A DNA stretch of 64,000 nucleotides from NCBI RefSeq assembly GCF_057098645.1, contig NZ_CM169472.1. One strand, written 5' to 3'. Within the stretch, counting starts at the first letter, position 1. Every line of letters begins with the position of its first letter. Positions 55,301 through 58,300 of this stretch are shown piece by piece. A program made the position numbers.

Positions 55301-58300
55301 CTCTGAAGAAGGTGATATCTCCCTGTTAGCCAACTCAGTGGACAACCACGGCGGCTTCATGATGGGGCAGAACATCACGATGGAGTCGATGTCTGGTGTC
55401 AATAACAATACCGCGCTGATCGTGGCCAGTAAAAAACTGAAGATAAATGCGCGCGGCAGTATCGAAAACCGCGATGGCAATAACTTCGGTAATGCTTATG
55501 GTCTGTACTTCGGCATGCCTCAGCAAACGGGTGGAATGGTCGGCAAGGAAGGCATCGAGCTTTCCGGGCAGAACATCTATAACAACAACAGCCGTCTTAT
55601 CGCTGAGGATGGTCCTCTGACTCTGCAGGCGCAGAACACGTTCGACAACACGCGTGCTCTGGTCACCAGCGGGGCGGATGCATCTATTCAGGTTGGCGGA
55701 ACGTATTACAACAACTACGCTACCACCTGGAGTGCGGGCAACCTGGATATCGACGCGACCACGCTGCAAAACAGCAGCAGCGGTACGATGATCGATAACA
55801 ATGCGACCGGGTTTATTGCATCTGATAAAAATCTGTCACTGGAATTGGTGAATAGCCTTACCAACTACGGCTGGATCAGCGGTAAAGGCGATGTTGATGT
55901 CACGGTGAATAACGGCAACCTGTATAACCGCAATACCATTGCGGCTGAAAAGGGGCTGGATATTGCCGCGTTGAACGGTATTGAAAACTGGAAGGATATT
56001 TCTGCTGGCGGCGACCTGACGATGAACACCAATCGCCATGTGACCAACAACTCCAACAGCAATATGGTGGGGCAGAATATCGTTATTAACGCGGTTAACG
56101 ATATCAACAACCGTGGCAACATTGTCAGTGACGCTGACCTGAACGTGACAACCAAAGGCAACCTGTATAACTATCTCTATATGGTGGGTTATGGGGATGT
56201 CGCATTAACGGCAAATAGCGTGGCGAACAATAACGCGACCATCGAAGCGACAGGCGATCTGATTATCGATTCGAAGGGCAACGTGGGCAATTACCACGGT
56301 AAGCTGCATGCGTTGAACGGCGTGTTGTCTGTAAAAGGCAGCAATCTGAACAACGACTACGGTGAAATTCGTGGTTATGACGACGTCACGCTGGCACTGA
56401 CGGGCAACTACGACAGCTTTAAGGGCTCGCTGACCTCTGAAACGGGCGACGTGACTCTGACGGCGAACATCATAGACAACGCCTATGGTCTGATTGCCGG
56501 TGAGAATGTTTCTGTCGATGCTAAATCGACGATTTACAACAACACTGCGCTGATCGCGGCGAATAAAAAGCTAACCATTAATGCTGGGGGCAACATCGAT
56601 AACCGGGATGGTAATAACTTCTTGCGTTATAACGGTGAAGTTTTCGGTATTACTGACAACGTTGGTGGCATTGTGGGTAAAGAAGGTGTCACGCTTTCTG
56701 CTCAGAACGTCTACAACAACAACAGCAGTATTATCGCTGAAAATGGTCCGCTTAATCTGCTGTCCCGGGGAACGCTGGATAATACCCGCGCGCTTCTCAG
56801 CAGTGGGGCTGATGCCATTATCCGTGCGGCAGGGACGTTCTACAATAACTATGCCACTACGTACAGCGCCGGTAATCTCGACGTTTATGCGGCGTCGTTG
56901 AGTAACGCCAGCGATGGTCGTCTGGAAGACAATACCGCCACGGGTGTGATTGCGTCTGACAAAAACCTGGATCTGAACGTGGATAACAGCGTCACGAACT
57001 ATGGTTGGATCAGCGGGAAAGGGGATGTGCATTTCAATGTTCTGAAAGGCACGCTGTATAACCGTAATGCCATCGCAGCGGACAACGCGCTGACCATTAA
57101 TGCCCTGAACGGTGTTGAGAACTTTAAAGACATCGTGGCGGGAACTGCGCTGACTATTGATACGCAGAAGTATGTTACCAACAACAGCAACAGTAATATG
57201 TTGGGGCAAACCATCGCGATCAATGCCGTGAATGACATTAATAACCGTGGAAATATTGTAGGTGATTATTCTCTGGGGGTTAAAACCACCGGTAATATTT
57301 ATAACTACCTCAATATGCTGAGTTATGGTGTCGCTGGCGTATCGGCAAATAAGGTTACGAATAGCGGTAAAGACGCTGTTCTCGGTGGCTTCTACGGTTT
57401 AGCGTTAGAAGCAAACGAAACTGATAACACCGGTACTATTGTCGGCATGTAAGATGTAACCAAAGACAGCAGTGGCTTTTAATATTAATGCGTCATGTCA
57501 CGCAGGGGTTGCTGCTGTCTTTATTTAGTTTGAGAAGATAATGCAATTACGATTTAATTTTGGTTTGCTGCTCATTCTTTGTTGTTTTCAGGTTGCAGCG
57601 AAAGACAGTCTTGATAATTTGATCAAGCAGCAAAAAAATGCAGATGAAAGCACGTTACGCGCGCATAAATTAGAAAAAAAAGATGTTTACTCAAATGCAC
57701 AACGTAATGCGTTTACTCTGGGTGATCTGCCGCAGGAAAAGAATTGCTTTATCGTTAATCGGGTAGAACTGGAAGATAACTTTCTGGGTGGTCAGTTGAT
57801 TTCTGAAGTGCAAAAAGCGATTGCCGGACGTTGTGTCGGTAGTGCTGGTGTGCAAAAAATTGCTGCTGCCTTGCAGGATTATTATATTAATGCCGGATAT
57901 ATCACAACGCGAATTAGTATTCCTTCGCAGGATATTTCTAAAGGCAAGCTACGTTTCCAGGTTAATGCCGGGAAGATAGAAAAAACGATTGTGGAAGGTA
58001 ATGACATCAGTGAATGGATGTTACCTTTTCAGCGTAACGATATTCTCAATATTCGCGATATTGAACAGGGGTTGGAAAATCTTCAGCGAGTACCTGACGT
58101 TGATGTGAAAATTAATATTGAACCGGGAACACGGGATGGTTACAGCATCGTTCATATTGATACACACCGGGGGAAAAACTGGAGCGTTCGGGCAAGTTAC
58201 AACAATTGGGGCGATGAAGAAACGGGCCGTTACCAGACAACCGCGGTGGGTTATCTGTTTAATCCAGCGAAAATGGGGGATCTGTTTTATCTCGCCGGTA

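Follow-up and report, generated by a model that had tools for sequence, protein, structure and literature searches.

A long in-frame tandem duplication of predicted beta-helix coils in the exoprotein gene otpA of Escherichia coli O145:H28: its age, stability and contraction

The otpA gene and its locus

The window analysed here, the whole stretch of 64,000 nucleotides from contig NZ_CM169472.1 (assembly GCF_057098645.1), carries a large two-partner secretion exoprotein gene, tpsA, much of which is similar to itself. The question raised by this locus is whether the repeat is a recent and unstable one, whose copy number could even be wrong in the assembly, or an old and settled part of the protein. 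The gene, its secretion domain, its last codons and its partner are located as follows:

53640..57452, plus strand: otpA (tpsA), 1270 aa with a GTG start, from the ORF list; the O145:H28 orthologue of ECs_1282.
53763..54485, plus strand: TPS secretion domain, aa 42-282 (Pfam PF05860, E 2.3e-41; TIGR01901, E 7.7e-22).
57366..57449, plus strand: C-terminal tail, aa 1243-1270 (28 aa), modelled as beta-strand to its end.
57541..59160, plus strand: otpB (tpsB), encoding a 539-aa Omp85-type transporter (Pfam ShlB, E 1.6e-70, with POTRA_2 and POTRA_3); the orthologue of ECs_1283.

The gene was a 100% match to the CDS WP_001240833.1 of strain RM12761, and the sequences of E. coli O145:H28 RM12761 and RM13516 were identical to the window. 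Nucleotide identity to ECs_1282 of strain Sakai and to the EDL933 gene was 96.6% across the full 3813 bp, and the flanks matched ECs_1280-1290 in the O157:H7 (Sakai/EDL933) order, with ECs_1283 next after ECs_1282. This full-length high identity, together with the synteny with the published locus, places the protein in the OtpA orthologue group. The O145 and EDL933 alleles differed in patches, with a maximum divergence of 11% at 56490-56640, a pattern that looks like ordinary inter-strain mosaicism.

The name tpsA given in the original prediction was correct, since the product has a TPS domain and haemagglutinin repeats, and a ShlB/FhaC-type transporter gene lies next to it. The repeats were recognized by the NCBIfam models adhes_NPXG and fil_hemag_20aa and by Pfam Fil_haemagg, and the translation contains ANPNGI, an NPNG-type motif. 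Sequence matches of the TPS domain in the PDB were Fha30 of FHA (1rwr) and HpmA (HpmA265), and it is to this domain that sequence relatives of OtpA with a solved structure were limited. A TPS domain, an adjoining gene for a POTRA transporter and a beta-helical shaft of coils of about 20 residues are the marks of a type Vb TpsA protein, and all three were found here; judged by its sequence, 53640-57452 is a genuine tpsA. No toxin or other extra domain was found by Pfam and NCBIfam in the C-terminal tail. In the 1.4-kb AT-rich region upstream we found no Rfam match and no convincing ORF, and the counts of promoters and terminators were not above those of shuffled sequences.

The otpAB pair corresponds to ECs1282-1283 (bioRxiv 10.1101/2020.04.13.038984) and has been confirmed by experiment as a genuine two-partner secretion system, its function being given as unknown (bioRxiv 10.1101/2020.04.13.038984; PMC5422565). 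According to the account of Choi et al. 2007 given in PMC5422565, OtpA of O157:H7 is secreted into the medium in a TpsB-dependent manner. In the accounts of OtpA that were consulted, we found no description of an internal duplication.

Extent, divergence and predicted fold of the two units

An offset scan of otpA against itself gave one outstanding diagonal, at an offset of exactly 1134 nt (378 aa, in frame), with 67.5% identity over the best 600 nt and 40% for the next best offset; identity along this diagonal climbed at about 55200 and dropped after about 56220. A blastn self-match paired 55404-56217 with 56538-57351 at 67.8% identity (E 2.7e-74), and blastp aligned aa 505-864 with aa 882-1242 at 58% identity and 74% positives, with one 1-aa gap (E 8e-129). 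otpA carries a long collinear in-frame tandem duplication, whose parts are:

55152..56231, plus strand: duplication unit 1 (U1), aa 505-864, about 17 predicted beta-helix coils; supported by the blastp self-alignment, the unit trees, a comparison of motifs with single-unit outgroups and the secondary structure of the AlphaFold model.
56232..56285, plus strand: linker coil of 18 aa (aa 865-882) between U1 and U2.
56286..57365, plus strand: duplication unit 2 (U2), aa 883-1242; supported by the blastp self-alignment, its clade being apart from that of U1.

The prediction of an in-frame tandem duplication of about 1.14 kb and 380 aa was thus borne out as to its period, but its start, placed at 55380, lies about 230 nt inside the first copy. 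The duplicated block amounts to 58% of OtpA, and the two copies do form most of the C-terminal half, as had been proposed. Simpler repeat searches were of little use: Tandem Repeats Finder, with a longest period of 500, reported nothing in otpA, as the period is longer and the copies are too diverged, and a gapless direct-repeat search returned just fragments of 84 and 35 nt at spacing 1134, so that the offset scan and BLAST were needed.

The shafts of TpsA proteins share a degenerate coil motif of about 21 aa, and the similarity could be ascribed to this motif without any true duplication. Weak diagonals did appear at multiples of about 21 aa (offsets 63, 123/129, 183, 243 and 306 nt), and the Fil_haemagg and fil_hemag_20aa models match the region. 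We nevertheless give this explanation a negligible probability, as the self-alignment holds 58% identity over 360 aa with a single gap, the remaining internal blastp self-alignments of OtpA were gap-rich and did not exceed 29% identity, and, in the structural model, idiosyncrasies of helix and loop recur exactly at offset 378. A long collinear diagonal, not only short degenerate motif similarity, is what the self-comparison revealed.

The description of the copies as highly similar did not survive the analysis. Nucleotide identity between U1 and U2 was 63-68%, and the longest exact run common to both was 12 nt in the O145 sequence of the window and 17 nt in EDL933. By the Nei-Gojobori method, pS was 0.73 and dS about 2.5, synonymous sites being saturated, and dN was 0.32. 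RecA-dependent recombination or the k-mer collapse of an assembly needs far more identity than runs of 12-17 nt at 63-68%. As the copies are not highly similar, neither ordinary homologous recombination nor the collapse of a k-mer assembly is plausible for this gene.

The fold of the duplicated region was approached with an AlphaFold model of aa 480-1270 (791 residues), for which 23 two-unit homologues were aligned. The prediction had a mean pLDDT of 96 and a pTM of 0.83, and was all-beta, each stretch of ~21 residues holding about three short strands and beta structure extending to the C-terminus, in keeping with the beta-helical nature that had been proposed for the block. A BLOSUM autocorrelation of the protein peaked at 21, 41/42, 61, 81/82, 102 and 122 aa, and the 378-aa period corresponds to 18 coils of 21 aa each. 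Two short alpha-helices, at model positions 134-142 and 512-523 (aa 613-621 and 991-1002), lie exactly 378 residues apart; such a short helix and its loop, which do not belong to the coil repeat, recur at this offset. Foldseek matches to the PDB were weak and nearly all beta-solenoids, with EtpA at the top (E 0.012), the secretion domain of HxuA second, and VacA and the EspP passenger lower. In the model, U1 and U2 form one continuous beta-helix. The rise of a beta-helix is about 4.8 A per coil, from which the second unit, with its 18 or so coils, would make the secreted rod some 9 nm longer.

Both units appear to be maintained. Comparison of the O145 and EDL933 alleles gave dN/dS values of 0.03 for the N-terminal part, 0.06 for U1 and 0.10 for U2, and these low values in the units imply that both are under purifying selection. 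Among two-unit proteins, the first half was better conserved in U1 and the second half in U2. The U1 element YFGMPQQxGGM (aa 623-633), which is extra-helical, was also found in single-unit outgroups, and the paralogous place in U2 is occupied by FGITDNVGG. From these sequences, the element is taken as ancestral, kept by U1 and replaced in U2, which makes the divergence asymmetric. Gene conversion between U1 and U2 was looked for, and gave no signal.

Age, stability and contraction of the array

The distribution of the duplication was traced in the best 120 of 954 proteins with E < 1e-20. Two full units were present in 31 of these 120 (1268-1301 aa), seven had two units partly deleted, and the other 82 had one unit (731-935 aa). 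Within this set, two-unit proteins belonged to Escherichia, Enterobacter and Aeromonas veronii, and one-unit proteins to Klebsiella, Kosakonia, Pantoea, Leclercia, Mixta, Rahnella and others. In each two-unit protein the first unit was nearer to U1 of the query and the second nearer to U2; neighbor-joining trees of the units, made without bootstrap, separated a U1 and a U2 clade, with distant single-unit proteins outside both. This grouping of U1 with U1 and U2 with U2 indicates, on the strength of the aligned sequences, a single founding duplication in the ancestor of the Escherichia/Enterobacter/Aeromonas clade, older than the spread of the clade. The nearest single-unit proteins (P0041, P0043, P0044 and P0045) were 49-57% identical to the units and showed a weak U1-to-U2 gradient, read from just 17 clade-wide diagnostic columns; they may either predate the duplication or be very old chimeras.

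The period of Enterobacter-type proteins (1290/1291 aa) is 399 aa, that is 19 coils of 21 aa, and their similarity runs up to the very C-terminus. Local and global alignments to these proteins located one 21-aa coil that E. coli OtpA does not have near aa 899, just downstream of the linker. The 378-aa period of OtpA is therefore explained by the loss, in the Escherichia lineage, of one coil from a 399-aa original. Other indels among the relatives, of 21, 41, 85 and 162 aa, also correspond to whole coils.

These results led us to propose that a block of beta-helix coils in otpA was duplicated in tandem and in frame long ago and has become fixed, its two units being stable and rarely contracting, a reading to which we assign a probability of about 0.88. 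The ancestor would have been a protein of about 890 aa in which a signal peptide and a TPS domain preceded a beta-helix with a single unit at its end. A 399-aa block (19 coils x 21 aa) would have doubled once, in the common ancestor of the Escherichia/Enterobacter/Aeromonas clade, and the Escherichia lineage would then have dropped one 21-aa coil to leave the 378-aa (1134-nt) period. The units have diverged asymmetrically under purifying selection within what is modelled as one continuous beta-helix, and the array contracts rarely and in register at 5-13 nt of identity, most likely by replication slippage or homeologous recombination filtered for an intact helix.

A very different account would be that the duplication is recent, highly similar and prone to recombination, and that collapse or expansion has perhaps made its copy number in the assembly wrong. 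The period is indeed exact and in frame, and one-unit variants exist in nature. However, apart from the divergence of the units (63-68% identity, perfect identity of at most 12-17 nt, dS of about 2.5) and the absence of a gene-conversion signal, the survey of genomes opposed it. otpA was present in 381 of 5426 complete E. coli genomes, and in 379 of the 381 it was covered at 80% or more, in a single place. Among the 74 matches listed, which include an even sample across the ranking, the gene measured 3813 bp except for one copy of 3812 bp and one truncation by IS1; the latter is that of SCU-316, the one examined of the two exceptions below 80%. The chimeric junctions described below for P0007 and P0008 appear to be absent from the complete E. 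coli genomes, as no full-length match of the 301-nt junction probes exceeded 95% identity; coverage was uninformative for these probes, since megablast alignments continued into the diverged half, and identity was used instead. We consider a recent and unstable repeat extremely improbable, and the agreement among these genomes excludes an assembly collapse. Neither does the gene behave as a variable-number tandem repeat, as perfect identity does not reach tens of bp and the copy number is essentially constant among complete E. coli genomes. The ancient two-unit array is stably inherited and its contraction is rare, the stability being due to the fact that U1 and U2 are just 63-68% identical in DNA.

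Contraction was nonetheless documented outside the complete genomes. A collection of 5.8 billion proteins yielded three one-unit proteins nested in the Escherichia clade, all from rare lineages: P0007 and P0008, of 892 aa each, exactly 1270 - 378, and P0035, of 893 aa. At diagnostic residues, defined as positions at which U1 has one fixed residue and U2 another, P0007 read as 40 of U1 type followed by 56 of U2 type with zero exceptions, and P0008 as 53 of U1 type followed by 43 of U2 type with one exception. The crossovers, projected on the window, are:

55462..55474, plus strand: U1 side of the P0007 crossover, with U2 partner 56596-56608; from nucleotide diagnostic sites.
55671..55675, plus strand: U1 side of the P0008 crossover, with U2 partner 56805-56809; from nucleotide diagnostic sites.
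55860..55898, plus strand: U1 side of the P0035 crossover (approximate), aa 741-753; from protein diagnostic sites and segment trees.

The P0007 crossover falls in a 13-nt stretch, TCGAAAACCGCGA, identical between the units in the EDL933 allele (gene nt 1823-1835), and that of P0008 in the 5-nt interval GGGGC (gene nt 2032-2036); both are in register. In neighbor-joining trees of segments, without bootstrap, the three chimeras fell within Escherichia U1 for the first part of the unit and within Escherichia U2 for its end. The genes of P0007 and P0008 occupy the normal locus with normal synteny, each in at least two independent samples and on contigs of 20-45 kb. Samples in which the chimeras occur are SRR24033007, GCA_031590855.1, ERR10491137 and SRR29490122.

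Could these 892/893-aa proteins be the ancestral state, or artefacts of assembly, instead of secondary contractions? The wider family is mostly single-unit, which would suit the first option, and the sources of P0007 and P0008 are mainly short-read assemblies, which would suit the second. But an ancestral unit would be about equidistant from both copies throughout, as distant outgroups are, and the chimeras nest in Escherichia U1 in their first part and in Escherichia U2 in their last, each with one clean crossover at a place of its own. As for artefacts, a de Bruijn assembler is unable to jump over 5-13 nt of identity, and the recurrence in independent samples, on long contigs of normal synteny, points the same way. 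An ancestral or artefactual origin is in our judgement very unlikely. On this sequence evidence, contraction by recombination between the units is real, with at least three independent events, and rare. The expansion and contraction that the original prediction envisaged held for contraction only, as no protein of three-unit length was found in the best 120 of the 954 homologues; the comparison of tpsA length among related strains, proposed there as a check, brought out rare one-unit chimeras, the length being essentially constant in the sampled complete E. coli genomes.

Given the low identity between U1 and U2, these contractions are more likely to have arisen by slippage independent of RecA or by homeologous exchange, with selection retaining products that keep an intact helix, than by ordinary homologous recombination. 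The parental alleles of the chimeras might have had longer identity than the present-day junction sequences.

In the P0007 lineage, codon 379 of otpB has changed from TGG to TAG and a downstream gene is split, which points to decay of the locus; the P0008 lineage has an intact otpB. These observations bear on whether the length polymorphism is adaptive, with the 18 extra coils tuning the projection of OtpA or adding a second, diverged binding surface, and with one-unit forms being selected. Purifying selection on both units, their asymmetric divergence with the ancestral YFGMPQQ loop missing from U2, and the intact otpB of the P0008 lineage would agree with this idea; the signs of decay in the P0007 lineage, the great rarity of one-unit forms and the fact that OtpA has no known function (PMC5422565) speak against it, and we regard it as unlikely. 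It is equally doubtful that two-unit and one-unit OtpA are functionally distinct length variants, differing by a longer reach or a second binding face. If they were, in-register recombination between diverged units would constitute a rare natural long/short switch in E. coli.

For practical purposes, otpA is correctly assembled in O145:H28 and its repeat needs no long-read re-check. The modular history of the gene is now documented, with a founding duplication of 19 coils, later indels of whole coils, and three contractions that were rare and in register. The one-unit chimeras, in particular P0008 with its intact transporter gene, are ready alleles for relating the length of a beta-helix to secretion and function, and their junctions offer a small natural example of deletion between repeats of about 65% identity at 5-13 nt of identity. 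Of mild interest are that contraction has taken place three times independently, in register, and that U1 and U2 have diverged unequally; beyond annotation, the duplication is of little consequence.

Comparison with known two-partner secretion systems

The closest known system is OtpA/OtpB of E. coli O157:H7 (Choi, Dawson and Bernstein 2007, as reported in PMC5422565 and bioRxiv 10.1101/2020.04.13.038984), whose otpA is the same gene as the present one. As in the O157:H7 locus, a loc6-type fimbrial operon lies upstream, and otpB, acpS and lipid/polyketide-like genes lie downstream. The present locus differs in carrying the O145:H28 allele variant and in that the upstream fimbrial operon is broken by an IS3 in this strain.

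In FHA (FhaB) of Bordetella pertussis, as in OtpA, the TPS domain precedes a long right-handed beta-helix with coils of about 19-21 residues. The shaft of FHA is described by the beta-helix model of Kajava, with the R1 and R2 repeat tracts. OtpA is much shorter than FHA, without a C-terminal prodomain and without known adhesin motifs, and it has one two-fold duplication of 18-19 coils instead of long tracts of similar coils.

The ETEC protein EtpA (PDB 8vbb), an adhesin of the TpsA type, was the best structural match to the modelled C-terminal 791 residues and likewise has a beta-solenoid TpsA shaft, although the match was weak (E 0.012, TM 0.24-0.30, 13% identity). The gene for EtpA lies on a plasmid and EtpC glycosylates its product, whereas no glycosyltransferase gene lies beside otpA. 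A reading of OtpA as a glycosylated adhesin of the EtpA/HMW1 type was rejected, as the defining parts are missing.

CdiA resembles OtpA in its TPS domain, FHA-type repeats and TpsB partner. A CdiA-like toxin was also considered and discarded: there is no VENN string, no C-terminal toxin domain and no immunity gene, and the helix is predicted to extend as far as the C-terminus. The transporter gene lies directly downstream of otpA, in the order tpsA-tpsB. Set beside these systems, the duplication in otpA is an ordinary case of TpsA beta-helical shafts growing by the duplication of coil blocks, in a gene that had already been published.

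Allelic divergence and a unit-specific loop in OtpA

Divergence between the O145:H28 and EDL933 otpA alleles was uneven, with a maximum of 11% at 56490-56640, the start of unit 2, and values of 0-5% elsewhere; the overall dS was 0.21 for unit 2 vs. 0.08 for unit 1. Together, this patchy divergence and the difference in dS between the units suggest mosaic recombination among strains.

The tandem units also differ at one loop. Unit 1 keeps the motif YFGMPQQxGGM (aa 623-633, 55506-55538), which is conserved in single-unit relatives too, and the paralogous place in unit 2 reads FGITDNVGG (56640-56672). 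In the predicted model, a short alpha-helix protruding from the beta-helix precedes the YFGMPQQxGGM loop, which may be a functional site.

Apparent decay of otpAB and location of otpA in other strains

In the lineage carrying P0007, a natural one-unit OtpA, codon 379 of otpB bears a nonsense mutation, TGG to TAG (comparison loci L005, 5466-7085, and L006, 4554-6173), and the aminomethyltransferase gene downstream of otpB is broken into two; the otpAB locus thus appears to be decaying in these strains. Of the two complete genomes without full-length otpA, one is that of E. coli SCU-316, in which an IS1 insertion has left only the last 594 nt of the gene (locus L007, 4287-5594). As to location, one of the 381 otpA copies found in complete E. 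coli genomes was plasmid-borne rather than chromosomal.

Surroundings of otpAB

The regions flanking otpAB in the window are:

48112-50938, loc6-type chaperone-usher fimbrial operon, IS3-interrupted, upstream of otpA
52251-53639, AT-rich spacer between a hypothetical gene (207 aa) and otpA
59176-64000, gene cluster 3' of otpB (ECs_1284-1297; 10613-24423 in comparison locus L008)

The 1.39-kb spacer has 32-35% GC and contains no annotated gene. Searches of it gave no Rfam match and no ORF longer than 62 aa, and promoter-like sites were not more frequent than in shuffled sequences; it may be regulatory DNA that was gained by horizontal transfer and is silenced. Elsewhere in the window, and unrelated to the otpA duplication, gathering-level Rfam matches were found to Ysr251 (30391-30584, minus strand, 186 bits) and naRNA4/CssrE (5091-5169, minus strand, 60.4 bits).

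The cluster downstream of otpB encodes a holo-ACP synthase, a FabG-like reductase, a FabZ-like dehydratase, an ACP, an aminomethyltransferase-family protein, two ketosynthases and an ABC transporter. These genes form a biosynthetic cluster of lipid or polyketide-like type, whose linkage to otpAB was constant across the loci examined.

On the upstream side, the IS3-family element (about 49194-50407) splits the fimbrial operon, leaving an usher that lacks its N-terminal part and a chaperone that lacks its C-terminal part; the same operon is uninterrupted in O157:H7 Sakai (ECs_1278-1280) and in comparison locus L003.
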